Assembly (NCBI GenBank): GCA_964360965.1
Contig: CAYHYM010000009.1
Coordinates: forward strand, 1-30,400
From: an uncultured Gammaproteobacteria bacterium
GTDB lineage: Bacteria; Patescibacteriota; Microgenomatia; Daviesbacterales; UBA10151
DNA length: 30,400 nucleotides
Reading direction: 5' to 3'
The position numbers and the translations under genes were made by a program. Positions 423-28,195 of the stretch are shown piece after piece. Each line of letters starts with the position of its first letter. The stretch's first letter is position 1. The notes beneath the pieces are model-generated. The model saw nothing but the letters and a program-made list of their open reading frames with translations. It was not told the origin of the DNA and did not search any database.

Positions 423-737
423 TTATAGGATTTGAAGGTCTTTATCAACTTCTGAAAATTCTTTTTCCAAATCACCCAGATCCATGGCTTCAACCTCACT
501 GCTCAAAGAATCCAAATCAGTTTTAGTTTGAGTAACTTTTGCTGAATCCTGGGCAGTATCTGGAGTTAATTGTTCTCTTAAATACCAGGCTCCGGTTAAA
601 ATAAAAATTAGCAAAAGAGCAAGTCCCACAATCCACATCCATTTATTAGCGCCTTGCCGGGCCGTATTATTTTCATTCTCCGTATTGGGAGTTTCCTGAT
701 TTTCTACCGGTTGATTTACTACTTCTTTATTTTCCAT
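423..737 (-). CDS. hypothetical small membrane-anchored protein
   Basis: 104-aa ORF with a polar N-terminus, one hydrophobic span (WMWIVGLALLLIFILTGAWY) and an acidic C-terminal tail. No family recognised. Confidence 0.5.
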   Translation of the reverse strand: MENKEVVNQPVENQETPNTENENNTARQGANKWMWIVGLALLLIFILTGAWYLREQLTPDTAQDSAKVTQTKTDLDSLSSEVEAMDLGDLEKEFSEVDKDLQIL

Positions 738-3057: not shown

Positions 3058-4446
3058 TTAAAGTTTGAATCTTCTATCCGCTAAAAAAGGGTTGGGTTTT
3101 CTTTTCATCTCTCCTGTACCCAAAAGTATACCTCTTTGCAAAGTAAATTCACCATATTTGTTGTTAATTTGATCTATAGCTTGAATAATTTTTTCTTGAA
3201 CAGCTGATTCTGGTAATAAAGACAGATTTTGGGGAGTTTCACTCTTTAAATTAGAGATAGAAACTCCCACCGTTCTAATTTTATCTCCATTCCAGATAGT
3301 ATGAAATATCTTCCAGGTAGCTTTAAAAATTTCTAGACCATCACAAGTATATGGGATAGTTACTTGCATCCCATCACCATGGAACACACCTCCGAGGTGT
3401 AACTGCATTTCTTCACCTCGGAGGTGGAAGCTATATCTAAACCAGCAGTGGACAGTTCTACCAACTAATTTTTTAGCTCTCAACCTTCTAGCTACTAACT
3501 CTGTCAGTTTTAATAAAAGCTGTTTGATCTCCTCTAGGTTATTAGTATCATGAGAAGTAGTGTGCCTATGCCCAATACTCTTAACCTCTTCTTTCTCATA
3601 AAAAGGGATAATAGGAGCATGATTTATTCCACGACTGCAATCATATAAAAATTGCCCATAGCTTTTAAAATAAAAAATTAAAATATCAAGAGTTGCCTCT
3701 CTTAGCTGTTTAAAATTAAAAATTCCCAGTTTATTCAGCCTATTTTTAATCCCTGGACCTATTCCACAAACAGCATCAAGTTCCAGTTTATCCAAAACCT
3801 TAATTGCCTCTTTCTGATTGGCAATAATCACCAACCCATCTGGCTTTTGTAAAGATCCAGCAAGCTTTGCCAAAAGCTTGTTATATGAAATGCCTATGGA
3901 ACAAGTTATCCACTCACCAATTTCAGTTTTGATTCTTTTTTTAATGCTTTTAGCAATTTCTAATATGTCATCCCCGCGTAGGCGGGGATCCAATAAACTG
4001 TTAGCGCTATTATTTAATTGGATTCCTGCATTCGCAGGAATGACAGAAGTAGGTATCTCTAAAAACACTTCATCTATTGAAAACACCTCCAGATAGGGAG
4101 AATAATCTTTTAGAATATTTAAAAACTTTTTTGTTGTCTCCAAATATTTATCAGAATCCCCTGGGACAATTGTAATTTGCGGACAAAGCTTTTTGGCTTC
4201 CCAAATTTGCATGCCGGTTTTAACTCCGAACTTTTTAGCCTCTACAGAGGCTGCCCCAATCACTGTCCGTTCCCCGCCTCGACTCGCTCGCTCGTCGGGC
4301 GAGGCGGGCATCCTATCTCCACCAGTAACCCCAATTGGTTTTCCTCTCAGCCTGGGATTAGCCTGCTGCTCCACAGTAGCAAAGTAGCTATTAAAATCAA
4401 CATGTAAAATAGTTCTTATTCTTCTTCTACCATCTCCAGAAACCAT
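3058..4446 (-). CDS. dinB: Y-family DNA polymerase IV
   Basis: ILHVDFNSYFATVEQ, KPIGVTGG, SIDEVFLE, SIGISYNKLLAKLAGSLQKPDG, GIGPGIKNRLNKLGI. The ORF is interrupted in frame by three GC-rich elements. Confidence 0.9.
   Translation of the reverse strand: MVSGDGRRRIRTILHVDFNSYFATVEQQANPRLRGKPIGVTGGDRMPASPDERASRGGERTVIGAASVEAKKFGVKTGMQIWEAKKLCPQITIVPGDSDKYLETTKKFLNILKDYSPYLEVFSIDEVFLEIPTSVIPANAGIQLNNSANSLLDPRLRGDDILEIAKSIKKRIKTEIGEWITCSIGISYNKLLAKLAGSLQKPDGLVIIANQKEAIKVLDKLELDAVCGIGPGIKNRLNKLGIFNFKQLREATLDILIFYFKSYGQFLYDCSRGINHAPIIPFYEKEEVKSIGHRHTTSHDTNNLEEIKQLLLKLTELVARRLRAKKLVGRTVHCWFRYSFHLRGEEMQLHLGGVFHGDGMQVTIPYTCDGLEIFKATWKIFHTIWNGDKIRTVGVSISNLKSETPQNLSLLPESAVQEKIIQAIDQINNKYGEFTLQRGILLGTGEMKRKPNPFLADRRFKL
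3386..3426. repeat. pair of inverted REP-like hairpins inside dinB
   Basis: ACACCTCCGAGGTGT (3386-3400) and CACCTCGGAGGTG (3414-3426) are mutual reverse complements. Translated in frame as HLRGEEMQLHLGGV. Confidence 0.7.
3967..4044. mobile_element. 78-nt MITE-like element with terminal inverted repeats, in frame in dinB
   Basis: Left end GTCATCCCCGCGTAGGCGGGGATCCAAT. Right end ATTGGATTCCTGCATTCGCAGGAATGAC, the reverse complement of GTCATTCCTGCGAATGCAGGAATCCAAT. Encodes VIPANAGIQLNNSANSLLDPRLRGDD (26 codons). Confidence 0.75.
4266..4310. repeat. GC-rich hairpin insertion inside dinB
   Basis: CCCGCCTCG (4273-4281) pairs with CGAGGCGGG (4300-4308). Encodes PASPDERASRGGE between the conserved blocks KPIGVTGG and VIGAASVEAKKFGV. 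Confidence 0.65.
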
Positions 4447-14671: not shown

Positions 14672-14673
14672 AA

Positions 14674-16665
14674 TTATTTATTCGAAGCAGGTTTTGCAAA
14701 ACGCCTTCTGTAGATAAGTGTTCCTAAAATGGCAAAGTATAAAACTGCCACCACTGCCACGAGTCCCAATGCAATCCAGGGAAAATTCTGTAGGATGAAA
14801 AATGGCCTGACCTTTATCTCATGTCGTTCCTTTATTCCTGCCACCTGAATCTCAATAACATCATCAAAGCTATCCAAAAGAGATTTAGTTCTGAGTTCAA
14901 ATTCAAACTGGGCAAATCCAAAGGAAGGTATTGGACCAGATTGGACAGCAGCCCCATTTAAAATGTTGACCTGTCCGGCATTGACAGATAAGTTTGATGA
15001 CGGAAGAGCGGCATTTCCCAAATTTTCTATTTTTATATTAATTTTATGGGGAAATCCTGCCAAAATTTGCTTTTTTACATCAATGATTAAATTGGGCTGC
15101 GGCTTTCCCAAAAAATCACTTTGTGATAGCTCCACTTTGACATCATGGCTGTCCATCCCGCTCAATTTATATGAGCCGGCAGGAACAGGCTGCTCTGATG
15201 ATGAACCTTTGATAACAAATACAAAATGATTTAAATCCAGCTTATTAAAATAATCAACTCCACCAGTGGTGTTTTGCCAGGTTGGATCAACCATTACCCA
15301 ACCTCGATTATCATCCCAATACTCAGGCCAGGCATGTAAAATGTCGCGAGACAAAGACAGCGGCCGCAACGCAAGATTGGTGGTATAGGCAAATCCGTCC
15401 AGCTCCCTGGCAGGGATCCCGGCAGCCCGGGTTAAGCTGATAAAAAGATCGGTAAATTCCATACAAACAGCAGAGGTTGGGTTATTTAAGGCTGTAACAG
15501 CGCCCAACCTTTCAATATTTTCATTGGAGAGCCTGGAAGTATCATATTGTAAAGTAGATATCACACTCTGATAAATTAGTTTTACCTTTTGCTCTGTTGA
15601 AGAGGGCTGATTAGTACTTAAGATTTCACTTAGTTTACTTTTAACTGTCGGGTGATCTTTTTCCCAATATTTTTGAGTGGTAGTATATTTTTGATAAAGA
15701 CCGGTCGGTAAGACTGGGTTTTTCACTTTTGTTAAGATATAAAGCTTGGCTGATCCGGTGGCCTTAACAGATAACTTTTGGGCTCTTTTCAGTTTATACC
15801 AGGCAAGATAATTACCATCCTCATCTAAAGTCACATTAATCGGCTTTGGCTCAATTCGCTGATAAATCACCTCCTGATAGGCTGTATCCGGAGGCAGGGC
15901 AATATTGGTGAGAACCGGTACCAGATTGGGATTTTCCAAATTATATGTCAAATTAAAATCATAAACTTGAAAACTGCCAAAAGTGGCGGAAACACCTGAT
16001 AATATCAACTGGTCTTTGTCAAATATTAAAAAGGTCCTGCCGGATGAGGTACTCTGTCGTTTTGGGGTGGGACTGATAATGGAAGGCGGACCAAAGCTTT
16101 GAGGAGTGGAAATTGTCAAATTATAACTTTGAAGACCGGGCGCTGATTGAATTTTGGGAGCGGATATTTCCCAGATTTTACCTAAATGCTGGGCAAAATC
16201 AGATGATTTAAAACTAAGGGTAAAAGGCTGCTCTTTTCCTACTCCCGCTATCTGCTGGTTAAACTTAACTGTGATAGAAGTTGAGGTATCTTTTTGCTCT
16301 GATGTCACCTCCATTAAGCCTCCTTGGTCTGAGGCTTTGATATCGGTAATTTGGGTGGCTCCAATAATAAGTTTAAACTGGCTGGCAAAATATTGACTGG
16401 TTAGATTCCTGAGGGTAATTTTTTCAGTAACTGAAGTTATTCCACTTAAGTCTATATCATAAGTTACATCATATGAGGTGGCAAAATCTTGTCCTGAGCT
16501 AGCTTGCCCTGAGCCTGTCGTACTTCGATTCCACTCAGTACGACCCTGAGTGTTAATCGAATGGGTCGAAGGGGTCGAAGGATCTTCGGCAGCAAAGACA
16601 GCAGTCAGTGAAAAGTAAAAAGTAAAAATTGAAAATATAACAGCCAGGAAAATTTTCTTGATCAT
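14674..16665 (-). CDS. transglutaminase-like cysteine-protease-fold surface protein
   Basis: Cys-His-Asp pattern: AVCMEFTDLF, ILHAWPEYW, WVMVDPTW. N-terminal signal peptide MIKKIFLAVIFSIFTFYFSLTAVFA and a C-terminal TM span. The ORF-track start at 16695 is possible but adds 10 non-signal residues. Confidence 0.75.
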   Translation of the reverse strand: MIKKIFLAVIFSIFTFYFSLTAVFAAEDPSTPSTHSINTQGRTEWNRSTTGSGQASSGQDFATSYDVTYDIDLSGITSVTEKITLRNLTSQYFASQFKLIIGATQITDIKASDQGGLMEVTSEQKDTSTSITVKFNQQIAGVGKEQPFTLSFKSSDFAQHLGKIWEISAPKIQSAPGLQSYNLTISTPQSFGPPSIISPTPKRQSTSSGRTFLIFDKDQLILSGVSATFGSFQVYDFNLTYNLENPNLVPVLTNIALPPDTAYQEVIYQRIEPKPINVTLDEDGNYLAWYKLKRAQKLSVKATGSAKLYILTKVKNPVLPTGLYQKYTTTQKYWEKDHPTVKSKLSEILSTNQPSSTEQKVKLIYQSVISTLQYDTSRLSNENIERLGAVTALNNPTSAVCMEFTDLFISLTRAAGIPARELDGFAYTTNLALRPLSLSRDILHAWPEYWDDNRGWVMVDPTWQNTTGGVDYFNKLDLNHFVFVIKGSSSEQPVPAGSYKLSGMDSHDVKVELSQSDFLGKPQPNLIIDVKKQILAGFPHKINIKIENLGNAALPSSNLSVNAGQVNILNGAAVQSGPIPSFGFAQFEFELRTKSLLDSFDDVIEIQVAGIKERHEIKVRPFFILQNFPWIALGLVAVVAVLYFAILGTLIYRRRFAKPASNK
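16491..16590. repeat. GC-rich composite element (CCTGAGC / GGTCGAAGG family) in frame near the N-terminus of the transglutaminase-like gene
   Basis: Contains CCTGAGC x3, GGGTCGAAGGGGTCGAAGG and the hairpin GTCGTAC-N14-GTACGAC. Encodes PSTPSTHSINTQGRTEWNRSTTGSGQASSGQD. Confidence 0.6.
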
Positions 16666-16749
16666 AATGTCATCCCAGAGAATACCGGGATCCATAAATA
16701 TTGTAGCAATTTTATTATGTCATTGCTAGCGAATGATGGAAAGCTAAAA

Positions 16750-16782
16750 TTTAGCTTGACACCTGAGAGGTGTAAACGTAAA
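16750..16782 (+). repeat. REP-like element upstream of the RAYT ORF
   Basis: TTTAGCTTGACACCTGAGAGGTGTAAACGTAAA with hairpin ACACCT-GAG-AGGTGT at 16759-16773. Exact inverted copy at 26126-26158. Confidence 0.85.
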
Positions 16783-16791
16783 ATAAATTTA

Positions 16792-17448
16792 ATGCCTGGA
16801 AGAAAAACTGTTTTTGAGAATGGATATTTTTATCATGTCTATAACCGGGGCTCTGAAAAAAGGGATATTTTTATAAAACCGCAAAATTATCAAAGATTCA
16901 TAAAAACTATGTACTATTATCAGTACGAGGGACCAAAACTAAGGCTTTCCCTACTAAATCAGGACGGATTCCAAAATTTTAAACCGGATCCCAGTAAGAA
17001 ATTAGTTGAAATTATCTGTTATTGCTTAATGCCTAACCACTTTCACATTCTAATAAAACAACTCAAAGAAAATGGAATTTCTAAATTTATTAGTCAATTA
17101 AGTAATAGCTACACCAAATATTTTAATACCAAATATAAACGTGTAGGAGCTTTATTCCAGGGTGTATTTCAGGCAGTTATTATTGAATCCGATGAACAGT
17201 TCATTCATACCTCCAGATATATTCATTTAAACCCGTCAGTATCAACCTTGGTAGAGAACCCTGCCAATTGGCCTTGGTCCTCTTATACCGAGTATGTTGA
17301 TAAGAAAAAGGGTATTTGTGTTAAAGAACCAATAATGAGTCATTTTCCTTCTGTGGAAGCTTACAAAAAATTTGTCTTGGATCAGCTTGATTACGGGAGG
17401 ATTCTCGAAATCTTAAAACACGGAGCCATTGATTATGATTACACCTGA
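16792..17448 (+). CDS. IS200/IS605-type Y1 (HUH) transposase, REP-associated tyrosine transposase (RAYT)-like
   Basis: YHVYNRG, the HUH motif MPNHFHILIK, and the catalytic-Tyr motif SRYIHLNP. Start set to ATG 16792, because the upstream TTG extension is made of REP sequence. The TGA stop lies inside a REP hairpin. Confidence 0.8.
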   Translation: MPGRKTVFENGYFYHVYNRGSEKRDIFIKPQNYQRFIKTMYYYQYEGPKLRLSLLNQDGFQNFKPDPSKKLVEIICYCLMPNHFHILIKQLKENGISKFISQLSNSYTKYFNTKYKRVGALFQGVFQAVIIESDEQFIHTSRYIHLNPSVSTLVENPANWPWSSYTEYVDKKKGICVKEPIMSHFPSVEAYKKFVLDQLDYGRILEILKHGAIDYDYT

Positions 17449-17457
17449 GAGGTGTAA
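17441..17457 (+). repeat. REP-like hairpin overlapping the RAYT stop codon
   Basis: ACACCTGAGAGGTGTAA is identical over 17 nt to 16759-16775 and in the same orientation. Confidence 0.8.
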
Positions 17458-17560
17458 GCCTCACACAAACTACTTCCGATCGAAAACAACTTGTCATGCG
17501 TACAGGCACATAAGGTCTCACCTTAGTTCAACGGTCGTGTTAACAATGTGATAAGTCCGT

Positions 17561-17579
17561 GCTGACACCTGAAAGATGG
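17561..17579 (+). repeat. degenerate REP-like copy
   Basis: GCTGACACCTGAAAGATGG compared with GCTTGACACCTGAGAGGTG. The second arm is decayed. Confidence 0.4.
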
Positions 17580-17589
17580 AAAGGTAAAT

Positions 17590-18177
17590 TTACCTTCTGA
17601 TTTTTTTTAGAATATGTGAAGCTAATCGAGTTAAGTCTCCAGCCAATAAGAATGCATGAATTCTAAGAACTTCTGCTAAGGTAGGTGTGAGTTCCTTTCT
17701 ATTCTCTCCCAACATTTCACCTAGTAGTTCGCTATCATAATAATACTGCTCACTGCGTACTCTTTCATAATCCACTCCATAGCCCGCTGCCTCCATTAAA
17801 TCAATAATCAGCAGACCTGGTAAGGGTAAACTTTCTGCCCAAGTATTAATAACCTCTTTGGGTGGAATAGTTTCAGTTTCACCATTTGCTCCCATTAAAT
17901 TCCATAACAACTCCAACTTTCCCTCTCCAATTCTTCTATCATGTTCTGCCAGAAATTCTTGATGTAATCCCCATATGGTAAGAACCGCCTCTTTAAAAAA
18001 GTCGGGAGTACCTATACTTGCCGCCAAAGAAGGATCACTCACTCTTCCTATTAAATAACGTTCCTTTACTTCTTCTGGAAATATTGAATGTTCAATTGAA
18101 TAAATAAATATTCGGTTGTGAAGTTCTATATATTTATCCCTAGCCAGCTGAAGCTGTTTAGAAATTTGTTCTTTCAT
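17590..18177 (-). CDS. hypothetical protein, apparently co-transcribed with uvrA
   Basis: 195-aa ORF whose ATG (18177) lies 2 nt after the uvrA stop (18180-18182). Helical and acidic, with no motif recognised. Confidence 0.5.
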   Translation of the reverse strand: MKEQISKQLQLARDKYIELHNRIFIYSIEHSIFPEEVKERYLIGRVSDPSLAASIGTPDFFKEAVLTIWGLHQEFLAEHDRRIGEGKLELLWNLMGANGETETIPPKEVINTWAESLPLPGLLIIDLMEAAGYGVDYERVRSEQYYYDSELLGEMLGENRKELTPTLAEVLRIHAFLLAGDLTRLASHILKKIRR

Positions 18178-18179
18178 AT

Positions 18180-21100
18180 TTATAGTATCTTTGCCAAATA
18201 TTGCCCTGTATAGGAGGATTTGATTTTGGATATATCTTTGGGGGTGCCTTCTGCAATAACTTGTCCGCCTTTATCCCCACCTTCCGGGCCTAAATCTATT
18301 ACCCAATCGGTATTTTTAATCACATCAAGATTGTGCTCTATAATCACCACAGTATTTCCATAGTTTACCAGCTTCCTTAAGATGGTTAATAACCTTTCTA
18401 TATCAGCAAAATGTAAACCGGTGGTGGGTTCGTCCAAAATATAAAGAGTGTGACCAGTTGGACGCTTAGATAATTCAGCAGAAAGTTTAATCCTTTGTGC
18501 CTCTCCACCAGACAGCGTGGGAGCTGGTTGGCCCAATTTTATATATCCCAATCCCACATCATTTAGTACTTGCAGTTTATTTTTGATATTGGGAATATTT
18601 TCAAAAAACTTTAAAGCTTCCTCAACAGTCATGTCCAAAACTTCAGAAATATTTTTATCCTTAAAGTGAATTTCCAAAGCCTCCCTGTTGTAGCGGGCAC
18701 CGTTGCAAGCCTCACAAGTCACATAAACATCCGGCAAAAACTGCATTTCAATTTTGAGCTGCCCTTCCCCTTCACAAACCTCACACCTTCCACCTTTGAC
18801 ATTAAAGGAAAACCTGCCTGGTCCATAACCCCTAATTTTAGCTTCAGTACTTTGGGCAAATAGGTCTCTGACAAAGGTAAAGGCTTCTGTATAGGTGGCC
18901 GGATTTGAGCGGGGAGTCCGGCCTATTGGTGATTGGTCTACCAAAACCACTTTATCCACATACTCTACCCCCTCCAGTTCTTTAAAAGCCCCTGGTCTTT
19001 CCTTGGATCTATAAATTTTTTGAGCTAACGCCTTATATAAGATGTCGTGAATTAAAGTAGATTTTCCGGATCCTGAAACCCCTGATATGGCTATAAACTG
19101 CCCTAAAGGAAAATCCACATTGATATTTTTTAAATTGTGTTGAGAAGCACCAAGAACCTTCAAAACATGATTGTCATTCCCGCGCAGGTCATCGACTCCG
19201 AGGTCGCTCAGACTCGAGGAGCGGGAATCTATTTTAATATTATTTATGGATCCCGTATCCCTTCGGCCTCGCTCAGGGCGGGCAAGTTCAGGATGACCGT
19301 GAACAGTCACTTTTTTCTTACCTGATAAATACTGTCCAGTTAAAGATGTAGTACTTTTTTTAATCTGATCCGGAGTGCCTGTGGTTACTATCTCCCCACC
19401 ATGTTCACCAGCTCCTGGCCCAATTTCAATTAATAGATCTGCATTCTCCATCATCTCTGCATCATGCTCATTAACTATCACTGTATTTCCCAAATCTCTT
19501 AATTTTTTTAAAGTTTCAATTAATCTTGAGTTATCTCTTTGGTGTAAACCAATAGAAGGCTCATCTAAAACATACAAAACTCCGGATAAACCCGAACCAA
19601 TTTGGGAGGCCAGCCTGATTCTTTGTGATTCTCCCCCGGCTAAGGTCATAGCAGCGCGATCCAGCGTTAAATAATCCAAACCAACATCAATTAAGAACTT
19701 AACTCTGGCTTGGATTTCTTTTAAAATAGGTTTGGCAATTTGAGTTTCACGATCATTTAAAATAGATTCTATCACTTCACTACGTTTCGCTCCAGAATGA
19801 CTATTCCCCAATCTTTTAATCCATTCCAAAGCCTCTTTAATAGATTGTGTCACCACTTCTGCAATATTTAATCCATCAATGGTTATTGACAAGGCTTCAT
19901 CTTTAAGTCTTGCTCCATGACACTTAGGACAAATCTCTTTAACCATATATTTTTCTATTTCCCTTTTCACATAATCAGATTCGGATTCTTGATATCTTTG
20001 TTTTAGGTATGAAACCAAACCTTGAAAGCTAGATTTAAAATGAGTCCATCTTCCCTCTCTGTTTCTTCCTTCCACTCTAAATTCTTCGTCCCCAGCACCA
20101 TTAAGTAGCACATTTCTGGCTTTCTCAGATAATTCACCCAGTCTGGTATTTAAATCAAAACCGTAAACTTTGCCTACTGACTGAATAAGTCTTGAGAACC
20201 AGGTTTCATGAGTGGCTAACTTTTGCCATGGTAAAATTCCACCTTCTGCAATAGATAAAATGGGGTTTAAAACCATTTCCGGATCAATTTCCAAAAGTGA
20301 TCCTAAACCATGGCAGGTAGGACAAGCTCCATGAGGAGAATTAAAAGAAAATAGTCTTGGTTCCACCTCGGATAAGGCAATATTGTCAACCGGACAGGCA
20401 AATCTTTCAGAATAAAGATGATCGTCCATTTTCTTGGGATTTTGGGGAAATTCTAAAGAAGCGTCCAGGACTTCAGAAACAATCACGGATCCTTCACCTA
20501 ATTTGAGCGCTGTCTCGATGGATTGGGAGAGCCTGTTTATAATGTCATTCCCGCGCATGCGGGAATCCAATTCCGAACGTGACTTTGTTAATTGGATCCT
20601 CCTCGAGTCTGAGCGACCTCGGAGTCGAAGACCTGCCTTCGCAGGGATAACAGACTTATCCAATATGAGTCTGTCCACTACTGCATCGATAGTATGCTTA
20701 TTAGTTTTAATCAACACTAAATCCCCCGCTCCGCCCGCGCCCGCTTCGCCGCGCCCTGCGTCGCCGGAGGCGCGAGGCGAGGAGCGAGGCGAGTCTGTTA
20801 AGTCTCTAATTTGTCCATCAACCCTAACCTTTGAAAAACCTTTTTTCCTCAAATCTTCAAAAAGTTGGAAATATTCTCCTTTTCTGTCTTTAACCACAGG
20901 AGCCAAAATCATTATTCTTCTCGAAGACCCTGAGCGAGACTTCGACGGTGAGTCTTTCGACCCTGAGCTCAAGACCGAAGGGCTCAGTCGAACCGCGTAG
21001 CGAGTCGAAGGGTTCCCTACCACTTGTTCCACAATTTGTTCTACTGACATTCTACTAATCTCCCTTCCACAAATTGGACAATGGGGATGGCCAACCCTGG

Positions 21101-21443
21101 CAAATAAAAGCCTTAAATAATCATAGACCTCAGTAGTTGTTCCCACAGTAGAACGTGGATTATGTGAAACACCTTTTTGGTCAATAGAGATGGCCGGGGA
21201 TAAACCCTCAATATAATCAACATCAGGCTTGTCCATTACCCCTAAAAACTGCCTGGCATAAGCAGATAAAGATTCCACATATCTTCTTTGACCTTCTGCA
21301 TAAAGGGTATCAAAAGATAAAGAAGACTTGCCGGAACCGGAAATCCCCGTTAAAACCACCAACTTGTTCTTGGGAATTTCCAGATCAATATTCTTGAGGT
21401 TATGCTCTCTCGCCCCTTTTATAATAATCTTATCTATAGCCAT
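18180..21443 (-). CDS. uvrA: excinuclease ABC subunit A, expanded by in-frame insertions
   Basis: GISGSGKSSL and GVSGSGKSTL Walker A motifs. Two LSGGE signatures (LAGGESQRIRLA, LSGGEAQRIKLS). Zinc modules CPxC...CxxCxG. 1087 aa. Confidence 0.95.
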   Translation of the reverse strand: MAIDKIIIKGAREHNLKNIDLEIPKNKLVVLTGISGSGKSSLSFDTLYAEGQRRYVESLSAYARQFLGVMDKPDVDYIEGLSPAISIDQKGVSHNPRSTVGTTTEVYDYLRLLFARVGHPHCPICGREISRMSVEQIVEQVVGNPSTRYAVRLSPSVLSSGSKDSPSKSRSGSSRRIMILAPVVKDRKGEYFQLFEDLRKKGFSKVRVDGQIRDLTDSPRSSPRASGDAGRGEAGAGGAGDLVLIKTNKHTIDAVVDRLILDKSVIPAKAGLRLRGRSDSRRIQLTKSRSELDSRMRGNDIINRLSQSIETALKLGEGSVIVSEVLDASLEFPQNPKKMDDHLYSERFACPVDNIALSEVEPRLFSFNSPHGACPTCHGLGSLLEIDPEMVLNPILSIAEGGILPWQKLATHETWFSRLIQSVGKVYGFDLNTRLGELSEKARNVLLNGAGDEEFRVEGRNREGRWTHFKSSFQGLVSYLKQRYQESESDYVKREIEKYMVKEICPKCHGARLKDEALSITIDGLNIAEVVTQSIKEALEWIKRLGNSHSGAKRSEVIESILNDRETQIAKPILKEIQARVKFLIDVGLDYLTLDRAAMTLAGGESQRIRLASQIGSGLSGVLYVLDEPSIGLHQRDNSRLIETLKKLRDLGNTVIVNEHDAEMMENADLLIEIGPGAGEHGGEIVTTGTPDQIKKSTTSLTGQYLSGKKKVTVHGHPELARPERGRRDTGSINNIKIDSRSSSLSDLGVDDLRGNDNHVLKVLGASQHNLKNINVDFPLGQFIAISGVSGSGKSTLIHDILYKALAQKIYRSKERPGAFKELEGVEYVDKVVLVDQSPIGRTPRSNPATYTEAFTFVRDLFAQSTEAKIRGYGPGRFSFNVKGGRCEVCEGEGQLKIEMQFLPDVYVTCEACNGARYNREALEIHFKDKNISEVLDMTVEEALKFFENIPNIKNKLQVLNDVGLGYIKLGQPAPTLSGGEAQRIKLSAELSKRPTGHTLYILDEPTTGLHFADIERLLTILRKLVNYGNTVVIIEHNLDVIKNTDWVIDLGPEGGDKGGQVIAEGTPKDISKIKSSYTGQYLAKIL
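19173..19297. mobile_element. TIR MITE-like element in uvrA with nested insertions
   Basis: The GTCATTCCCGCGCAG..GCGGGAATC end is split by a 33-nt element at 19188-19220. The GGATCC..TCAGGATGAC end contains a CTGAGCG/CCGAAGG-type segment at about 19254-19287. Confidence 0.65.
20544..20651. mobile_element. TIR MITE-like element in uvrA with one nested 33-nt insertion
   Basis: Intact end GTCATTCCCGCGCATGCGGGAATCCAATT. The other end, ATTGGATCC|CTGCCTTCGCAGGGATAAC, is split by TCCTCGAGTCTGAGCGACCTCGGAGTCGAAGAC (20600-20632). 108 nt, 36 codons. Confidence 0.75.
20723..20793. repeat. GC-rich element (SPRSSPR..GEAGAGGAG family) in frame in uvrA
   Basis: Reverse complement is CTCGCCTCGCTCCTCGCCTCGCG + 21 extra nt + GCGAAGCGGGCGCGGGCGGAGCGGGGG. 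The 23-nt and 26-nt blocks are identical to 6052-6100. Confidence 0.8.
20920..21013. repeat. GC-rich composite element (CCTGAGC / GTCGAAGG family) in frame in uvrA
   Basis: Contains CCCTGAGCGAGAC, CCCTGAGCTCAAGACCGAAGGGCTCAG and GCGAGTCGAAGGG. Encodes about 30 residues (STRYAVRLSPSVLSSGSKDSPSKSRSGSS) where canonical UvrA has a short linker. Confidence 0.65.
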
Positions 21444-21461
21444 AGTTTATAATCCCTTCGG

Positions 21462-21571
21462 GTCCGAGCTCTTCGAGTCCGAGCTCTTCGAGTCCGAGCC
21501 TCAGAGTCGAGGACCTCAGAGTCGAGGACCTCAGGGTCGAAGACCTGAGCGACCGAAGGGAGTCGAAGGAC
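21462..21571. repeat. GC-rich ~15-nt-period tandem array in the uvrA 5' region
   Basis: Units all start GTC(C)GA: GTCCGAGCTCTTCGA x2, GTCCGAGCCTCAGA, GTCGAGGACCTCAGA, GTCGAGGACCTCAGG, GTCGAAGACCTGAGCGACCGAAGGGA, GTCGAAGGAC. Confidence 0.8.
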
Positions 21572-21682
21572 ACTAAAATTACCGCACTATTGTAAACCAT
21601 TTTGCAAGATTTTTAAAGGATTAATATGTTAAAATCTGTTCAAAATGAAGATAGAACAATATTTACTACAGAATCCAATACT

Positions 21683-21724
21683 TTAAATACTTAATTCCTT
21701 AATCTGATCTCTTAATCTGGCCGC
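21683..21724 (-). pseudogene. recoded duplicate of the uvrB 3' end (13 codons + stop)
   Basis: Encodes AARLRDQIKELSI*, identical to the uvrB C-terminus at 21759-21800. It has 9 nucleotide differences, all synonymous. It is out of frame with uvrB and lies behind stop codons. Confidence 0.7.
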
Positions 21725-21758
21725 CCAACGGGCGAGCCTCGCCTTAGATTAGCTACTT

Positions 21759-23771
21759 TTAAATACTTAACTCTTTTATTTGATCTCTAAGGCGGGCTGC
21801 TTCTTCAAAATCTAATATTTCTGCTGCTTGGTGCATTTGTTCCTCTAAATTTCCGATCATTTTCTGCCTCTCATTAACTGGTATATCTTCTATAGTTAAT
21901 TCTTTTTTACCCAATTTTTCCTCTATTTCTTCAACTTTCTCAATAAGTCTTTCCCTCAAAGCTTTTTCAATGCTTCTGGGTTTTATGTTATGCTTTTTAT
22001 TATATTCCATCTGGTACTTTCTTCTTCTGTCTACCTCCTCAATTGCTGACTTCATAGATTTGGTCATATTATCTGCATACATAATTACTTGCCCCTTAAC
22101 ATGTCTGGCAGCCCTGCCCATGGTTTGGATCAAAGAAGTTTTGCTTCTTAAAAAACCCTCTTTATCCGCATCCAAAATAATTACCAAAGTTACTTCAGGC
22201 AAATCCAATCCTTCCCTTAAAAGATTAATTCCCACAATCACATCATATTCACCTAATCTTAAAGACTGGAGAATATCAGATCTTTTTAAAGTTTCTATAT
22301 CAGAATGTAAGTAATTTACTTTAATGCCTCTCTCTTTTAGATAATCAGTCAAATCTTCTGCCATTCTTTTGGTAAGTGTAATAATTAGCACCCGTTCTCT
22401 ACGTTCCACCCTTTTTTCCACCTCAGAAATGATATCCTGAATCTGTCCTTGTGTAGGTCTGACAGAAACTTGAGGATCAAAAATGCCTGTAGGTCTGATA
22501 AGCTGCTCTGCTATCCCACACCCGGTGTGGGTTTGAGTTGACACACCGGGTGTGTGTCCTGAACAGGCCAAACTTATCTCATACTCATCCGGAGTTGCTG
22601 AAGCATAAATTACCTGATTAATTTTTCTCTGAAACTCATCAAATCTTAAGGGTCTATTATCCAAAGCAGAAGGAAGCCTGAAACCAAACTCAATCAAAGT
22701 TTCTTTTCTGGAACGGTCTCCGTTGTACATCCCACGCAGTTGGGGCAAAGTGATGTGGGACTCATCAATAATCAATAAAAAATCTTCAGGAAAATATTCC
22801 ATTAAAGTATACGGAGGGTCACCTTCTTTTCTGCCTTCAAAATATCTGGAATAATTTTCTATCCCATTACAATAACCGAATTCCTTAATCATCTCCAGAT
22901 CATAATAAGTTCTTTGTTCCAGTCTCTGAGCTTCTACTAATTTGCCTTGTTTTCTTAAATCTTTAATCCTAAATCTTAAATCTTCTTCTATTTGTTTTAT
23001 AGCAGGCAACATTCTGGACTCCGGAGTAATATAGTGTTTGGCAGGATAGATGGTTAAGGTTTGAGGGGTTGGGGTAGCAACACCAGTCAAAGGATCCAAG
23101 TGCGAAATTCTCTCTATCTTATCTCCTAAAAATTCTACTCTGACAGCTTGTTCCAAATAAGCAGGGAAAATATCTATAGTGTCTCCCTTAACTCTGTAGG
23201 TAGATCTTTTAAAATCCAAGTCATTTCTTGAATAAAACATCTTTTGAAGCATTTTAAGAATCGTCTGGAAACCTGTTCTTACCCCCATCTTTAGCTCTAA
23301 AATTGCCCCGCCATATTCAGCGGGAGATCCCAAATTGTAGATACAAGAAACTGAGGCGACCACTATCACATCTTTTCTGGTCATTAAAGAAGTCGTTGCA
23401 GAAAGGCGCAATTTTTCTATCTCTTCATTAATATTGGTCTCTTTTTCAATATATGTATCTGATTGGGGTACATAAGCCTCAGGCTGATAATAATCATAAT
23501 AAGATACAAAATACTCGCAAGCATTTTTGGGAAATAAAGACCTAAATTCTTGAGCTAGCTGTCCTGCTAAAGTTTTATTGTGGGAAATAACCAAAGTGGG
23601 TCTTTGCACTTTCTGGATCACATTGGCCATGGTAAAGGTTTTACCGGATCCAGTCACACCCAGTAGTACCTGATGTTCTTGTCCAGAATTAAGCCCGGAA
23701 ACAAGCTTCTCAATAGCTTGAGGTTGGTCACCTGTAGGTTTGAATTCAGAAATAATCTTAAATTTTGCCAT
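21759..23771 (-). CDS. uvrB: excinuclease ABC subunit B
   Basis: FKPTGDQPQAI, Walker A GVTGSGKTFT, DESH box (IIDESHITLPQ), helicase motifs, and a C-terminal UVR domain (LDFEEAARLRDQIKEL). Start set to ATG 23771 (MAKFKIISEFKP). The track start at 23780 is a TTG. Confidence 0.95.
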   Translation of the reverse strand: MAKFKIISEFKPTGDQPQAIEKLVSGLNSGQEHQVLLGVTGSGKTFTMANVIQKVQRPTLVISHNKTLAGQLAQEFRSLFPKNACEYFVSYYDYYQPEAYVPQSDTYIEKETNINEEIEKLRLSATTSLMTRKDVIVVASVSCIYNLGSPAEYGGAILELKMGVRTGFQTILKMLQKMFYSRNDLDFKRSTYRVKGDTIDIFPAYLEQAVRVEFLGDKIERISHLDPLTGVATPTPQTLTIYPAKHYITPESRMLPAIKQIEEDLRFRIKDLRKQGKLVEAQRLEQRTYYDLEMIKEFGYCNGIENYSRYFEGRKEGDPPYTLMEYFPEDFLLIIDESHITLPQLRGMYNGDRSRKETLIEFGFRLPSALDNRPLRFDEFQRKINQVIYASATPDEYEISLACSGHTPGVSTQTHTGCGIAEQLIRPTGIFDPQVSVRPTQGQIQDIISEVEKRVERRERVLIITLTKRMAEDLTDYLKERGIKVNYLHSDIETLKRSDILQSLRLGEYDVIVGINLLREGLDLPEVTLVIILDADKEGFLRSKTSLIQTMGRAARHVKGQVIMYADNMTKSMKSAIEEVDRRRKYQMEYNKKHNIKPRSIEKALRERLIEKVEEIEEKLGKKELTIEDIPVNERQKMIGNLEEQMHQAAEILDFEEAARLRDQIKELSI
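22515..22558. repeat. pair of REP-like hairpins inside uvrB
   Basis: CCCACAC-CCG-GTGTGGG (22515-22531) and TTGACACAC-CGG-GTGTGTGTC (22538-22558). Encodes SGHTPGVSTQTHTGCG in frame. Confidence 0.7.
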
Positions 23772-23779
23772 GACAGCCA

Positions 23780-23788
23780 ATTATATCA
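23780..23788 (-). promoter_or_regulatory. candidate extended -10 promoter of uvrB (TGaTATAAT), near-leaderless
   Basis: On the minus strand TGATATAAT ends at 23780 and the ATG at 23771 starts 9 nt after the hexamer. No SD is present. Confidence 0.4.
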
Positions 23789-23809
23789 CCATGATCTAGT
23801 TTGTCCTAC

Positions 23810-23839
23810 TTGACATCTTCGGGTTGTGTTTGGTAATGT
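23810..23839 (+). promoter_or_regulatory. candidate lexA promoter
   Basis: TTGACA (23810-23815), an 18-nt spacer ending in TGg, then TAATGT (23834-23839). Confidence 0.4.
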
Positions 23840-23874
23840 TTAAGGTATGGTTCGACTTCGCTCACCATTATAAT

Positions 23875-24492
23875 ATGCCAGTTACCCTTTACAGAAGACA
23901 AAAACAGATTTTAGATTTTATCAAACAATATGTTGATAAATATGGTTATTCCCCTACTTTAAGCGAGATTGCGAAATCAATCGGAGTTTCTTCTTTGGCC
24001 ACAGTTCACGAACATTTAGGAGCTTTATCTAAAAAAGGAGTCATTAAGAGATTCGAAGGGGCTGTTAGGGGAATTGAGGTTTTAGATCAACAGATATCGC
24101 AGGCTTTAAGAGGGGTAGAACTGCCCATTTTGGGCTTTATTGCAGCAGGCGCTCCCATCATGCCCTATACAGACCCTGATGCATTATTAAATATCCCACC
24201 GTCTATGATAACAGGCAAGAGAAGGTCATATGTACTGCAAGTTAAGGGTGATTCTATGATTGAGGATGGAATTTTGGATGGGGATTTCGTCATTATTGAG
24301 GAACAGACAGAGGCCCGTGACGGTGATATCGTGGTGGCGCTTTTGGAAAATGGCCTGGCCACTTTAAAAAGATTCTTCCGTGAAGCAGGCAGGATCAGGC
24401 TGGAACCTGCCAATGCCGCCATGAATCCAATTTATACAGTAGATGTAAAAATCCAGGGCAAATGTGTAGGGGTAATTAGAAGGTTCAATTAA
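23875..24492 (+). CDS. lexA: LexA repressor (S24 peptidase)
   Basis: N-terminal wHTH (LYRRQKQILDFIKQYVDKYGYSPTLSEIAKSIGV), Ala-Gly cleavage site (FIAAGAP), catalytic Ser (VKGDSM) and Lys (ATLKRF). Start at ATG 23875 gives a canonical N-terminus. Confidence 0.9.
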   Translation: MPVTLYRRQKQILDFIKQYVDKYGYSPTLSEIAKSIGVSSLATVHEHLGALSKKGVIKRFEGAVRGIEVLDQQISQALRGVELPILGFIAAGAPIMPYTDPDALLNIPPSMITGKRRSYVLQVKGDSMIEDGILDGDFVIIEEQTEARDGDIVVALLENGLATLKRFFREAGRIRLEPANAAMNPIYTVDVKIQGKCVGVIRRFN

Positions 24493-25688: not shown

Positions 25689-26366
25689 ATGCTATACATT
25701 ATTCCCACTCCCATAGGTAATTTAAAAGATATCACTTTAAGAGCACTTGAAGTTTTAAAAGAGGTGGATTCTATAATTTGTGAAGACACCAGAAGAACTG
25801 GATTACTTCTTAATCATTACCAGATTAAAAAGCCTCTTTTGGTATTGAACGATTACAACGAAGCAAAAATCCTGGATTCCACTATAGAGCGGCTCAGAGC
25901 TGGAGAGAATCTTGCTTTAGTGTCTGATGCAGGTACCCCACTTATTTCTGATCCAGGATATAAACTGGTCAGAGAGTGTTTCCACCAGGGGATTCCGGTT
26001 GATTCCCTCCCGGGTCCTTCTTCTGTTATCACAGCTTTAACACTTTCCGGTCTTCCTCCTGATAAATTTTTATTTCTAGGATATTTACCGGAAAAGCTTG
26101 GTCACAGAAAAACTTTACTAGAAACTTTACGTTTACACCTCTCAGGTGTCAAGCTAAACCCAACTTATATTTTATATATAGCTCCCCATAAACTGATCAA
26201 AACTCTCGCTGAGATGAAAGAAGTTTTTGGGGATATTGAAGTAGTTTTAGCCCATGAATTAACTAAAATCCATCAAAGTGTGGAAAAGAAAAAAATAAGT
26301 GAATGGCTGGAAACATTAAAAAATCCAAAGGGAGAGTATATATTACTATTCAACAAGGGGTGGTAA
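25689..26366 (+). CDS. rsmI: 16S rRNA (cytidine1402-2'-O)-methyltransferase
   Basis: LYIIPTPIGNLKDITLRALEVL, IICEDTRRTG, VSDAGTPLISDPG. Carries a 33-nt REP insertion in frame. Confidence 0.85.
   Translation: MLYIIPTPIGNLKDITLRALEVLKEVDSIICEDTRRTGLLLNHYQIKKPLLVLNDYNEAKILDSTIERLRAGENLALVSDAGTPLISDPGYKLVRECFHQGIPVDSLPGPSSVITALTLSGLPPDKFLFLGYLPEKLGHRKTLLETLRLHLSGVKLNPTYILYIAPHKLIKTLAEMKEVFGDIEVVLAHELTKIHQSVEKKKISEWLETLKNPKGEYILLFNKGW
26126..26158 (-). repeat. REP-like element, 11 in-frame codons inside rsmI
   Basis: TTTACGTTTACACCTCTCAGGTGTCAAGCTAAA is the exact reverse complement of 16750-16782 (33/33). Confidence 0.9.
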
Positions 26367-26666
26367 AACCTTTCCCCAGTAAATTCCCTCCCATTCTTCC
26401 TCACTTAATTCTCTGCGTGCTTTTTCGAAATCTTCAGAGAACTTACGTTTTTCCTCAGAATCTGGAGAAGATATCCCACTATCTAGAGGACCTACAGCTA
26501 AAACGCGCTCATCTCCTATAACAACAGTTCTGCCAGTGTACCTGGGGTCACCTAAAATCTGCTCTTGAAAAAAACCTTCGTTTTTACTGTAAGCTGCAAT
26601 GGCAGCTCTACTCCTAGCAGCACTGGGATTTTCTGGGGACAATCTTTTTATTTCTACTTTACTCAT
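26346..26666 (-). CDS. hypothetical protein
   Basis: 106-aa ORF that overlaps the upstream PEP-enzyme-like gene stop by 4 nt. Its 3' end overlaps the rsmI 3' end by 21 nt, convergently. Confidence 0.45.
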   Translation of the reverse strand: MSKVEIKRLSPENPSAARSRAAIAAYSKNEGFFQEQILGDPRYTGRTVVIGDERVLAVGPLDSGISSPDSEEKRKFSEDFEKARRELSEEEWEGIYWGKVLPPLVE

Positions 26667-28195
26667 ATACTTTTCCTTAGTATAACTCTATTTTCTGCAT
26701 TATACAACAAATCTTTTGCACTATTTGCCTCATATCTTTCCACCACCACCCCATAAACTCCCCTCTCCACCAAAAATTCCAACACTTCAGGATATAAAGC
26801 CAAACTTCCATAAGTTATAAACGGTATCTTAGATTTATGTAATAGTTTTAACCCATCCTCCATAAATTTTAATAAACCACTCACTTCGTTTTTGTAAAAC
26901 ATCAAATCCTCCTGTGTGGTGTCGAATCCATTTAAATGAGCTATCAGTTCATCCAGGTTTAACACCACTCCATCCAAACCAGCTACCAGATAATCCTCCA
27001 AATTAACAATATTTTCCGGTACAGCTACTTCCAGCCAAAGCTGTAAGGAGTTTTTTCTGGACAACTTTTTAACAGCCAGTTCTCTTTTAATTTGTAAAAA
27101 CTCCCCAACTCCTCTAACAAACGGAATAACTATGTGAATATTATTTATGCCTTTTTTAAGACTGCCATCTGGCAGTCGCAATTTATGCTTATGCCTTATA
27201 AAATCAGCTGCATCCACCATGGGCTGGAAAAGACTCTGTTGATGCAAAAGCCTTAATGTCCCCCTGACTTTACCCATCCCCTCTGATTTATCAGCCAGTT
27301 TAAATAAAATGGGAGAACTTGGAAAAGTTGCGGCAGATTCCACCAATCTAAAAACCAAATCCTCAAAAGAATCTCTTACGTTATTTAGATCAAATATTTT
27401 CTCAGAAGCAATATAGATTCCATCAACTGCCCTTTCCACTACCAATCCCGTAGATAAATCCAAAAAGACTTTCACGGCACTTAATACCTTAGGTGTCCTA
27501 TCTGGACCACCTCCCAGGTGTATGTCCACACCGGGTGTGTGGTAGCTTGACACCCCGGGGTGGGTATAGGGCTTAATTCCAACAATTTTAACTCCCCTAT
27601 CAACAATCCATTCATACTGATGAGGTATAAACAACTTTTTATTAGCTTCTCTGACTATCTCATCCAATTTTTTCAAATCATTAGGAGCAAGTTTCCCCCA
27701 TTTGACATTAATCACAGTATCATCCAGTATGGGATCAAAATAAGCTAACCCTAAGCTCCCTACCTTTTTTACAAAAGTTACCACCTGAGGCTCCAAATTC
27801 TCTGTAATGCCCTGATAAAAACCCTCTTTCCAAAGTCTAGCTTTAGTCTGTTCCAGCCATAACTCAAGAAGCGTAAGCCAAAGATTTTTGATGGATTTAA
27901 TCTGTACTCCATTTAATAAGAAATGGTTGTGGTTGCCAACCTCTTTTTTCAAAATTACAGGGATAGGTGTGGAATTTATTTCTTTTTTTACCAGGGTTAA
28001 GCTTTGCTCAAAAATTTCCTTTGATCCAAAATCGTAATGCTCAAGGATTGTTTTAAGATGTAAATCAGGCGGGGTAACCACTATTCCTGCTCCCACCGGC
28101 AAGATTGTCCGTGCCAGTTTCCCCAAAGCCACATTTAACTGGCCAAAAATTGGGAAATCTTCATCCAGTAAAACTTTTATGGGCAGAATCTCCAT
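26663..28195 (-). CDS. PEP-utilising-enzyme (PpsA/PPDK TIM-barrel)-like protein
   Basis: HIVIPFVRGVGEFLQIKREL and LWLEVAVPENI...AGLDGVVLNLDELIAHLNGFD resemble the PEP-utilising TIM-barrel blocks. Carries a cluster of three REP-like hairpins in frame. Confidence 0.45.
   Translation of the reverse strand: MEILPIKVLLDEDFPIFGQLNVALGKLARTILPVGAGIVVTPPDLHLKTILEHYDFGSKEIFEQSLTLVKKEINSTPIPVILKKEVGNHNHFLLNGVQIKSIKNLWLTLLELWLEQTKARLWKEGFYQGITENLEPQVVTFVKKVGSLGLAYFDPILDDTVINVKWGKLAPNDLKKLDEIVREANKKLFIPHQYEWIVDRGVKIVGIKPYTHPGVSSYHTPGVDIHLGGGPDRTPKVLSAVKVFLDLSTGLVVERAVDGIYIASEKIFDLNNVRDSFEDLVFRLVESAATFPSSPILFKLADKSEGMGKVRGTLRLLHQQSLFQPMVDAADFIRHKHKLRLPDGSLKKGINNIHIVIPFVRGVGEFLQIKRELAVKKLSRKNSLQLWLEVAVPENIVNLEDYLVAGLDGVVLNLDELIAHLNGFDTTQEDLMFYKNEVSGLLKFMEDGLKLLHKSKIPFITYGSLALYPEVLEFLVERGVYGVVVERYEANSAKDLLYNAENRVILRKSI
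27508..27562. repeat. cluster of three REP-like hairpins inside the PEP-enzyme-like gene
   Basis: CACCT-CCC-AGGTG (27508-27520), CACAC-CGG-GTGTG (27527-27539), and GCTTGA-CACCCCGGGGTG (27545-27562). Encodes HPGVSSYHTPGVDIHLGGG. Confidence 0.7.

Follow-up and report, generated by a model that had tools for sequence, protein, structure and literature searches.

A REPIN-like palindrome pair in frame within the inter-domain linker of UvrB in a Daviesbacteria genome

Introduction

In the REPIN-RAYT system of Bertels and Rainey, two repetitive extragenic palindromic (REP) sequences in inverted orientation form one long hairpin (the REPIN), and the REP-associated tyrosine transposase (RAYT) is encoded by a single-copy, vertically inherited Y1 gene flanked by REPs. 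Insertion sequences (IS) of the IS200/IS605 family, such as IS608 and ISDra2, use a HUH/Tyr enzyme and subterminal hairpins on single-stranded DNA, and insert beside a short target without duplicating it. Here we describe an inverted pair of short palindromes that lies in frame within the repair gene uvrB of a Daviesbacteria genome, a member of the Candidate Phyla Radiation (CPR). It is carried by a stretch of 30,400 nucleotides, hereafter the window (assembly GCA_964360965.1, contig CAYHYM010000009.1, positions 1 to 30,400), and we think it quite likely that it is a REPIN-like selfish element that a RAYT has probably moved and that is tolerated in a disordered linker between two domains of UvrB.

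Palindromes inside reading frames have been described before. Di Nocera et al. (2013, BMC Genomics 14:522; PMC3733652) found REPs or REP dimers within uvrB of R. conorii and within uvrA of Thioalkalivibrio and O. terrae, and described further intragenic REPs in dnaE/dnaE2, polA and recB/recBCD. More than half of these inserts are dimers encoding 20-30 residues, and two Xanthomonas species carry different REPs at about the same recB site. The REP families are linked with RAYT genes, and the enrichment of REPs in repair genes was left unexplained. The type of event described here, uvrB included, is thus already known, and the novelty implied by the initial annotation of the window was too high. 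Rickettsia palindromic elements (RPEs; Ogata et al. 2000, reviewed in PMC10969869) are in-frame mobile palindromes of housekeeping genes; they are translated and thought to be located at the protein surface in positions compatible with the fold.

Results

The uvrB gene is on the minus strand (21759..23780, probable start ATG at 23771) and encodes 670 residues with the Pfam domains UvrB_inter, Helicase_C, UvrB and UVR. Its product matches solved UvrB structures with E = 1e-258, and the protein outside the insert is intact. The inserted coding segment (22515..22565, minus strand) encodes CSGHTPGVSTQTHTGCG and is read in frame, with no stop codon, in the context ...ATPDEYEISLA-CSGHTPGVSTQTHTGCG-IAEQLIRPTG... 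(peptide stretch at the linker, SLACSGHTPGVSTQTHTGCGIAEQ). It replaces the four residues G-x-x-N found in relatives with an empty site, which results in a net gain of 13 residues. The coding DNA at the linker reads GCC TGT TCA GGA CAC ACA CCC GGT GTG TCA ACT CAA ACC CAC ACC GGG TGT GGG ATA GCA GAG, and the plus strand across the hairpin pair contains ...ctatCCCACACCCGGTGTGGGtttgagttGACACACCGGGTGTGTGTCctgaa....

Hairpins were called with a repeat finder and a separate hairpin scan. Unit 1 (22515..22531, CCCACACC-C-GGTGTGGG) has a perfect 8-bp stem and a 1-nt loop. Unit 2 (22540..22558, GACACAC-CGGGT-GTGTGTC) has a perfect 7-bp stem, may alternatively pair as ACACACC-G-GGTGTGT, and is preceded by the prefix TTGAC, as is the REP that flanks the RAYT-like gene of the window. 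The hairpin coordinates, sequences and uvrB translation given by the initial annotation were correct, with two perfect stems in frame. The stems are 8 nt apart, or 6 nt if one includes the two unpaired T of the TTGAC prefix. Each unit contains a 13-nt core, CACACCCGGTGTG in unit 1 (22517-22529) and CACACCGGGTGTG in unit 2 (22542-22554). The cores are exact reverse complements of each other, the central base alone differing between them, so that the pair is an inverted dimer (22517..22554) with two 13-nt arms, 100% complementary, on either side of a 12-nt spacer. Two folds are possible, either two small hairpins or, at the minimum free energy, one long 13-bp hairpin. The RNA fold of 66 nt reaches -30.3 kcal/mol (z = -3.0) and the DNA fold a z of -3.2; the GC content of the insert is 0.58, compared to 0.37 for the whole gene.

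The insert comes after DEYEISL, the last helix in the N-terminal RecA-like domain, and before AEQLIRPTG, a strand that runs on into Helicase_C. In the alignment to solved structures it matches residues 402-408 of B. caldotenax UvrB, which places it between the helicase domains, as had been proposed. Theis and co-workers reportedly placed in 1999 the beginning of domain 3 of the B. caldotenax protein near residue 415. In an AlphaFold2 model built from 40 close relatives, of moderate confidence overall (mean predicted local distance difference test score, pLDDT, 65.5), residues 405-416, which comprise the insert, are predicted as coil with a pLDDT below 50; this prediction is what would be expected of a tolerated surface loop. 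The native linker of B. caldotenax UvrB (...YELEHSPGVVEQIIRPTG) has the string HSPGV, and HMMER pairs it with the inserted HTPGV (PDB 2fdc_A / 3uwx_B). That HTPGV is an ancestral linker string was considered and rejected, as 72/121 close relatives are without it and the DNA is a repeated palindrome. Because close relatives do not have the segment, the Bacillus HSPGV is treated as a coincidence, one that could mislead alignment-based checks.

An independent ENA groundwater contig (6.9 kb) codes for an identical UvrB, and a related, syntenic genome has the 43-nt element in two assemblies (GCA_001777055.1 and an ENA assembly). An assembly artefact is excluded by the presence of the element in three or more independent assemblies.

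To compare filled and empty sites, the 120 best database matches of UvrB (74-85% identity) and the query, 121 sequences in total, were aligned with MAFFT; these relatives are nearly all annotated as Candidatus Daviesbacteria and their modal length is 657 residues. The short linker SLA-G-x-x-N-[VI]AEQ is found in 72 of the 121 proteins, the closest relative included; in the nearest relative (L184, 77% nucleotide identity) the DNA reads GCT GGT TCG GGA AAT ATT GCT GAA. As an outgroup we used 79 distant metagenome UvrBs (53-63% identity, among the matches listed), and in 74 of them the distance from SATP to [IVL][IVL]RPTG is 14-15 residues. The claim that the segment sits in a linker that is normally short therefore stands in both sets. 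The remaining 49/121 UvrBs carry between 1 and 46 extra residues inside the same four codons. Insertions or deletions elsewhere in the protein were seen at only two sites, residue 330 in 6 sequences and residue 483 in 1. In a neighbour-joining tree computed with the linker left out and without support values, filled and empty UvrBs are interspersed. The query pairs with a protein whose site is empty (P0002), and two proteins carrying the same element (P0004 and P0007) are placed elsewhere.

The window and the related locus L001 (also L002) agree at every position of the 43-nt core. Between the window and L001 the uvrB genes are 74.9% identical, and 51% at third codon positions. The 30-codon bins on either side of the element are 77% and 72% identical; a recombination tract as the source of the 43 identical nucleotides was rejected on account of these values. 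The sequence TTGGC lies directly upstream of the insert and is a mere lead for a target sequence.

Ten filled uvrB linker sites were inspected at the DNA level. Eight of them fold with a z of -3.3 or lower, and the GC content of the filled sites is 0.49-0.63, compared to 0.34-0.43 for the genes; empty sites fold at 0 kcal/mol. The filled sites comprise at least five palindrome families. The first (CACACCSGGTGTG) is found in the window, L001 and L182, with the variant CAAWCCSGGWTTG in L183, the second (CACCTCSGAGGTG) in L180 and L188, and the third (CACCCCSGGGGTG) in L181. The fourth (ATCCCTGC...GCAGGGAT / TTCCCGC...GCGGGAA), read as VIPANAGIQ...RLRGND, is found in L185, and the fifth (GTCATTGCGAG...CTCGCAATGAC) in L189. 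As one shared insertion cannot leave different families at one site, the linker must have received recurrent hits or one palindrome must have been replaced by another. The hotspot may be caused by extreme local tolerance, by a DNA target or by hairpin-to-hairpin conversion. Among copies of the first family, that of L183 has undergone the same compensatory change from C-G to A-T in the stems of both hairpins, and that of L182 is decaying (z -1.9). Several inserts are bracketed by cysteines (C..HTPGV..HTGC, CPNHPRG..GGEC and CHDTPGVC, in the query, P0004, P0006, P0009, P0011, P0033 and P0082); palindromic DNA alone does not generate this bracketing, because TGT pairs with ACA (Thr).

Reuse of a site was also found in dinB. 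On the minus strand of the window, an inverted dimer CACCTCCGAGGTG...CACCTCGGAGGTG (3385..3426), a sister variant of the family, contributes HLRGEEMQLHLGGV to the dinB reading frame. The orthologous gene of L075, another Daviesbacteria genome, has a dimer of the uvrB type (HTPGVELNLHTGC, L075 5873-5910) at precisely this position, where the window has HLRGEEMQLHLGG; two compensatory pair swaps in each arm separate the stems. A peptide near-identical to the one encoded in dinB, HPRGEEMQLHPGG, is found in the linker of the UvrB protein P0011. Same-site occupancy was further seen in genes that we take, from our own reading of the translations, to encode glycosyltransferase-like paralogues and a membrane protein.

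Within the window, the core has 3 matches (0.01 expected), hairpins of the form CACC-N(1-7)-GGTG number 14 (1.0 expected, maximum of 4 in 200 shuffles) and GC-rich hairpins 21 (2.2 expected). The 14 hairpins comprise both RAYT flanks, the dimers in uvrB and dinB, a triple unit in an ORF of 510 residues and a 33-nt REP copy in a TP_methylase ORF; about 10 units of the family and 3 exact cores were recognised in the 30.4 kb. The third exact core (27527-27539) belongs to a triple hairpin unit (27506..27565, minus strand) read in frame as THPGVSSYHTPGVDIHLGGG in an ORF of 510 residues (open reading frame 26663..28195) that is weakly similar to the C-terminus of phosphoenolpyruvate synthase; the recurrence of HTPGV in an unrelated gene, pointed out by the initial annotation, is due to this unit. 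The triple units of the window and L001 have diverged from each other. The REP at the 5' flank of the RAYT-like gene recurs as an exact 33-nt copy, in reverse orientation, at 26124..26159 (plus strand), where it is read in frame as TLRLHLSGVKLN in the ORF 25689..26366. This ORF belongs to the Pfam TP_methylase family and is presumably rsmI-like. The net gain compared to relatives is only 2 residues, so that this copy resembles a replacement of native sequence and not a simple insertion. The copies in uvrB, dinB, the TP_methylase ORF and the 510-residue ORF are all inside reading frames.

Eleven units were aligned. The 5' flank of uvrB unit 2 is GGGTTTGAGTTGACAC and that of the copy in the TP_methylase ORF GGGTTTAGCTTGACAC, and both share the CACC/GGTG stem; unit 3 of the 510-residue ORF begins with GGTAGCTTGACACC, followed by a different loop. 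The sequence 5' of the stem is TAGCTTGAC or GAGTTGAC, and no GTAG or CGTC tag is found directly at the stem in the aligned family units. The alignment agrees with the proposal that the TTGAC prefix and the stem design are common to the uvrB hairpins and the RAYT-flanking hairpin, with the qualification that the loop differs. From their sequences, the variants form a graded series in which flank and stem design are held in common and the loop varies.

The RAYT-like gene (16717..17448, plus strand), the only one of its gene cluster, encodes a Y1 (HUH) transposase with the HUH motif HFH and the tyrosine in RYIHLNP, and matches Pfam Y1_Tnp with 38.1 bits (cut-off 23). REPs are found on the plus strand at its 5' end (16752..16775, TAGCTTGACACCTGAGAGGTGTAA) and at its 3' end (17439..17457, TTACACCTGAGAGGTGTAA), and a degenerate third copy is located at about 17563-17580. 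These flanks (TTGACACCTGAGAGGTGTAA) have the prefix and the stem design in common with the uvrB units, and not the loop. In L183, an orthologue of this gene, flanked by the same REP, lies between uvrA and a transglutaminase gene, as in the window. A second type of Y1 gene, flanked by a different REP (CAAGGTCGGACCTTG), adjoins uvrB in L003 and L180, a place taken in L001 by a toxin-antitoxin pair. Combined, RAYT-like genes are present within the conserved lexA-uvrB-uvrA-transglutaminase-uvrC cluster (13355-24492 in the window) in four genomes: the window, L003, L180 and L183. Nothing convincing was found in a comparison of the regions upstream of lexA/uvrB, uvrA, dinB and the RAYT-like gene for a shared SOS-box-like motif.

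One genome per GTDB species was then scanned for two cores separated by 4-24 nt. The scan returned 96 stretches with core dimers in about 35 genomes. The CPR hosts are Daviesbacteria, Curtissbacteria, Woesebacteria, Shapirobacteria, Beckwithbacteria, Gottesmanbacteria, Paceibacteria and other Patescibacteria; the others are several Omnitrophota, Planctomycetia, some gammaproteobacterial metagenome-assembled genomes and three actinomycetes. Among the stretches returned, CPR genomes have 1-3 dimers each and Omnitrophota 10 or more. The identical dimer was found among the scanned GTDB representatives only in the related MFCX01 genome. Inverted orientation prevails (91/102 dimers), and no outer flank of the uvrB-type arrangement is conserved across the dimers of public genomes, as expected for insertion at many different sites.

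The CPR dimers lie mostly within open frames of 240-2400 residues. By eye, we take their hosts to include MiaA, PrmC, ribonucleotide reductase, DnaE, PheS, the CCA-adding enzyme, DinB, LeuRS (twice), TsaD, IscS and glycosyltransferases. Frames were counted in genomes below 46% GC, where the copies are not fully independent: in long ORFs the dimer is read as TPGV 28 times, as HT[RG]C 10 times and as H[PR]V 3 times (chi-square p = 5e-6), compared to 8/12/9 in open stretches of fewer than 100 codons (p = 0.64). As far as reading frames can tell, this bias argues for intragenic copies that are translated and then filtered by the effect of the peptide on the host protein. In L070 (Daviesbacteria JAUYKM01), a giant surface-type ORF of >2400 residues has many TPGVG.DSPGV repeats besides an exact dimer; there the peptide that the palindrome encodes may have multiplied into a protein repeat.

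Other repeats and inserts were seen in the window. A second palindrome family, ATTCCYGC...GCRGGAAT, occurs in dinB (3967-4047) and uvrA (20541-20645), where it is read in frame as SVIPA[NK]AG...R[LM]RG[ND]D; this type also fills the UvrB linker of P0046 (L185). The uvrA gene (18180-21443) encodes 1087 residues, compared to 982 and 1000 in syntenic relatives, and has five window-specific, mostly GC-rich in-frame inserts (20922-21014, 20724-20792, 20541-20645, 19761-19805 and 19167-19295); its Pfam UvrA_inter match is interrupted, and short 12-14-nt tandem repeats are located at 20725-20793. An in-frame 30-nt tandem duplication in uvrC (13472-13540, 2 copies, 96% match) encodes ISASLSNSRKARISLSNSRKARI and is absent from two relatives. 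Between the uvrB stop and the uvrA start (21456-21546) there are adjacent GC-rich arrays of 15-nt tandem repeats (CTTCGAGTCCGAGCT x2.9 and CCTCAGAGTCGAGGA x3.2), overlapped by a probably spurious ORF (21328..21576). Further in-frame inserts that are specific to the window with respect to syntenic relatives are found at 16489-16575 (N-terminal part of the transglutaminase-like gene, TPSTHSINTQGRTEWNRSTTGSGQASSGQ), at 4270-4308 (dinB, PASPDERASRGGE) and at 27158-27190 (510-residue ORF, KHKLRLPDGSL, including the hairpin GACTGCCATCTGGCAGTC). Finally, a 12-bp perfect hairpin CGCTCTTTTGAC-TTT-GTCAAAAGAGCG at 331-357, downstream of the ORF 423..737, is possibly a terminator.

Discussion

We hold with good confidence that the palindrome pair in uvrB is a selfish element similar to REPINs, that a RAYT probably mobilised it and that the disordered inter-domain linker of the protein tolerates it. 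Two inverted 13-nt palindromes with a 12-nt spacer would have entered the uvrB coding sequence in a Daviesbacteria lineage and would have been kept as they are in frame, free of stop codons and within the flexible connection between the two RecA-like helicase domains. Their translation would extend a disordered surface loop by a net 13 residues, with an effect on nucleotide excision repair that is probably neutral or nearly so. Movement most likely took place in trans, through a RAYT that cleaves and joins the hairpin while the DNA is single-stranded, a mechanism already proposed for REP/REPIN-RAYT systems. We infer mobilisation of this type from the established properties of IS200/IS605 and REP-RAYT systems, and on sequence grounds the RAYT of the window may have been the one that mobilised the uvrB variant. 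As CPR genomes are gene-dense and have little intergenic space, surviving copies would be found mostly in frame, in permissive protein loops.

Several observations weigh against a selfish and tolerated REPIN-like element. The best NCBIfam match of the ORF 16717..17448, REP-associated tyrosine transposase, scores 59.1 bits and is below the cut-off of 80. The loop is C/G in the uvrB hairpins and TGAGA at the RAYT flanks, the uvrB stems have an extra AC/GT, and the exact uvrB variant is represented by 3 cores within 30 kb. About 4 native codons have given way to the element, which is not a plain addition, and no target-site duplication or exact junction is definable from filled and empty sites that are ~23% divergent and in which the G-x-x-N codons are replaced; the missing duplication would agree with Y1-type movement and is by itself weak evidence. 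The 43 identical nucleotides at 25% nucleotide divergence fit poorly with a purely neutral, vertically inherited insert and would require independent recent insertions at the same site, conversion by other copies, or a hairpin under selection; of the first two, independent insertion would be the more plausible source. Finally, the concentration of inserts on one site of four codons (49, compared to 6 and 1 elsewhere) may exceed mere permissiveness.

An explanation that we judge unlikely is that the hairpin itself is selected, as an RNA or DNA structure, at the uvrB domain boundary and at the dinB site, the peptide being a by-product. Its possible roles would be a translational pause for co-translational folding, a signal for mRNA stability or processing, or a docking site for the RAYT-like protein whose gene lies in the same lexA-uvrB-uvrA-uvrC cluster. 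Such selection would account for a 43-nt core that is invariant at 25% divergence of the host gene, for the identical C-G to A-T change in both hairpins of L183, for the two compensatory pair swaps per arm between the dinB hairpins of the window and L075, and for the strong folds (z <= -3.3) of 8/10 filled uvrB sites despite five sequence families; the RAYT-like genes inside the uvr cluster in four genomes are also in its favour. However, there is no structure at the site in 60% of the relatives and in nearly all other bacteria, and parallel changes in the arms are more simply explained as insertion or conversion by the REP variant of the same genome. The frame bias indicates selection on the peptide and not on the hairpin alone, and some copies are decaying, such as that of L182 (z -1.9) and the triple unit that has diverged between the window and L001.

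Spread without a transposase, by template switching or gene conversion between hairpin copies, in which case the hotspot would mark fragile or recombination-prone DNA, is in our view very unlikely. It agrees with the fact that neither a target duplication nor a clean junction is seen, with the replacement of native codons (G-x-x-N in uvrB; net +2 in the TP_methylase copy), with the five palindrome families within one interval of roughly 12 nt and with the same-site occupancy in dinB and in the genes that we read as glycosyltransferase-like paralogues and a membrane protein. It is at odds with an empty site that has no obvious palindrome or repeat to seed template switching (0 kcal/mol), with a 5' flank that is conserved across the units of the family, as in REPs recognised by a transposase, and with the existence of RAYT-like genes flanked by the same units. 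We find it scarcely credible that the segment is an ordinary lineage-specific extension of the loop, for example a Cys-flanked loop, with an incidental palindrome, or that it is an assembly artefact. Cysteines do bracket several inserts (CPGHTPGV...HTGC, CPNHPRG...GGEC, CHDTPGVC) and HSPGV is native at the position of Bacillus UvrB, but the DNA core is shared with unrelated genes and with non-coding stretches in many genomes, five unrelated insert families occupy the site, the GC content of the insert (0.58) departs from that of the gene (0.37), and at least three independent assemblies contain the element.

A more far-reaching proposal, which we consider rather unlikely, is that the UvrB linker and the equivalent DinB site are a docking site actively reused by successive CPR REPIN-like palindromes, with Y1 genes in the lexA-uvrB-uvrA-uvrC cluster, and that stem pairing is maintained there through compensatory change or conversion. 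If it were true, it would imply either site-specific targeting of single-stranded DNA in repair genes or a selected hairpin function tied to the SOS and nucleotide excision repair regulon, for example in pausing, processing or RAYT docking, so that the insert would be more than tolerated junk, and the 13-nt dimer in ORFs of several phyla would be a widespread, undescribed family of coding-compatible mobile elements.

With a selfish element tolerated in the linker, the decoration of proteins by palindromic mobile DNA would extend to the CPR and to core genes of repair and translation. The genes affected are uvrA, uvrB, uvrC and dinB in the window and apparently dnaE, leuS, pheS and tsaD elsewhere. 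This would account for much of the length variation and for the odd low-complexity peptides (HTPGV, HLRGV, VIPANAGIQ...RGND) of CPR proteins, and palindrome-derived segments should be masked in alignments, phylogenies and structure predictions. The hotspot offers a natural experiment on target choice versus selective tolerance for Y1/RAYT-type elements and on the maintenance of hairpins by selection. Furthermore, the RAYT-like gene within the repair cluster makes testable a link to the enrichment of REPs in repair genes noted by Di Nocera et al.

With respect to known systems, the uvrB element has the short GC-rich palindrome of a REP; its location is not extragenic and no GTAG/CGTC tag is present. 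It is organised like a REPIN, as inverted REPs with a short spacer that can form one long hairpin. Like REPIN-RAYT systems, it is an inverted dimer, and the position of the RAYT-like gene between uvrA and the transglutaminase gene is kept in the window and L183; classical REPINs, however, are extragenic and number hundreds per genome in Pseudomonas and Enterobacteria, whereas the units described here are mostly intragenic and apparently of low copy number. The absence of a target duplication at the uvrB insert is shared with IS200/IS605 elements, from which it differs in that there is no full IS with left and right ends and that no target tetra- or pentanucleotide is definable. It cannot be classed as a miniature inverted-repeat transposable element, as there is no duplication or IS-like terminal repeat at the junctions and no conserved outer flank. 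Membership among the RPEs was rejected because of size and host. RPEs are also inserted in frame at fold-compatible positions of functional genes, but they measure about 100-150 bp, encode a conserved peptide of 30-50 residues, are restricted to Rickettsia and have no linked transposase. The uvrB element, in contrast, has a core of about 40-50 nt (two 13-nt palindromes), is found in free-living or episymbiotic CPR, encodes a peptide that is only the translation of the palindrome, and has related hairpins at a RAYT-like gene.

The closest precedent remains the intragenic REPs (PMC3733652), which are likewise short GC-rich palindromes, mostly dimers, in frame. Their hosts are Proteobacteria or Verrucomicrobia and not CPR, the GTAG/CGTC super-family tag is replaced here by the 5' flank TAGCTTGAC, and the insert is shorter here (13 residues net). 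A literature search found no earlier description that joins CPR/Patescibacteria with REP, REPIN or RAYT, which does not prove absence, and the frequency of reuse seen here, with one four-codon site filled in 49/121 relatives by at least five families, was not reported in PMC3733652. What goes beyond the literature consulted is the CPR host, the frequency of hits and the diversity of families at one site of four codons, and the presence of the 13-nt dimer in ORFs of several phyla.

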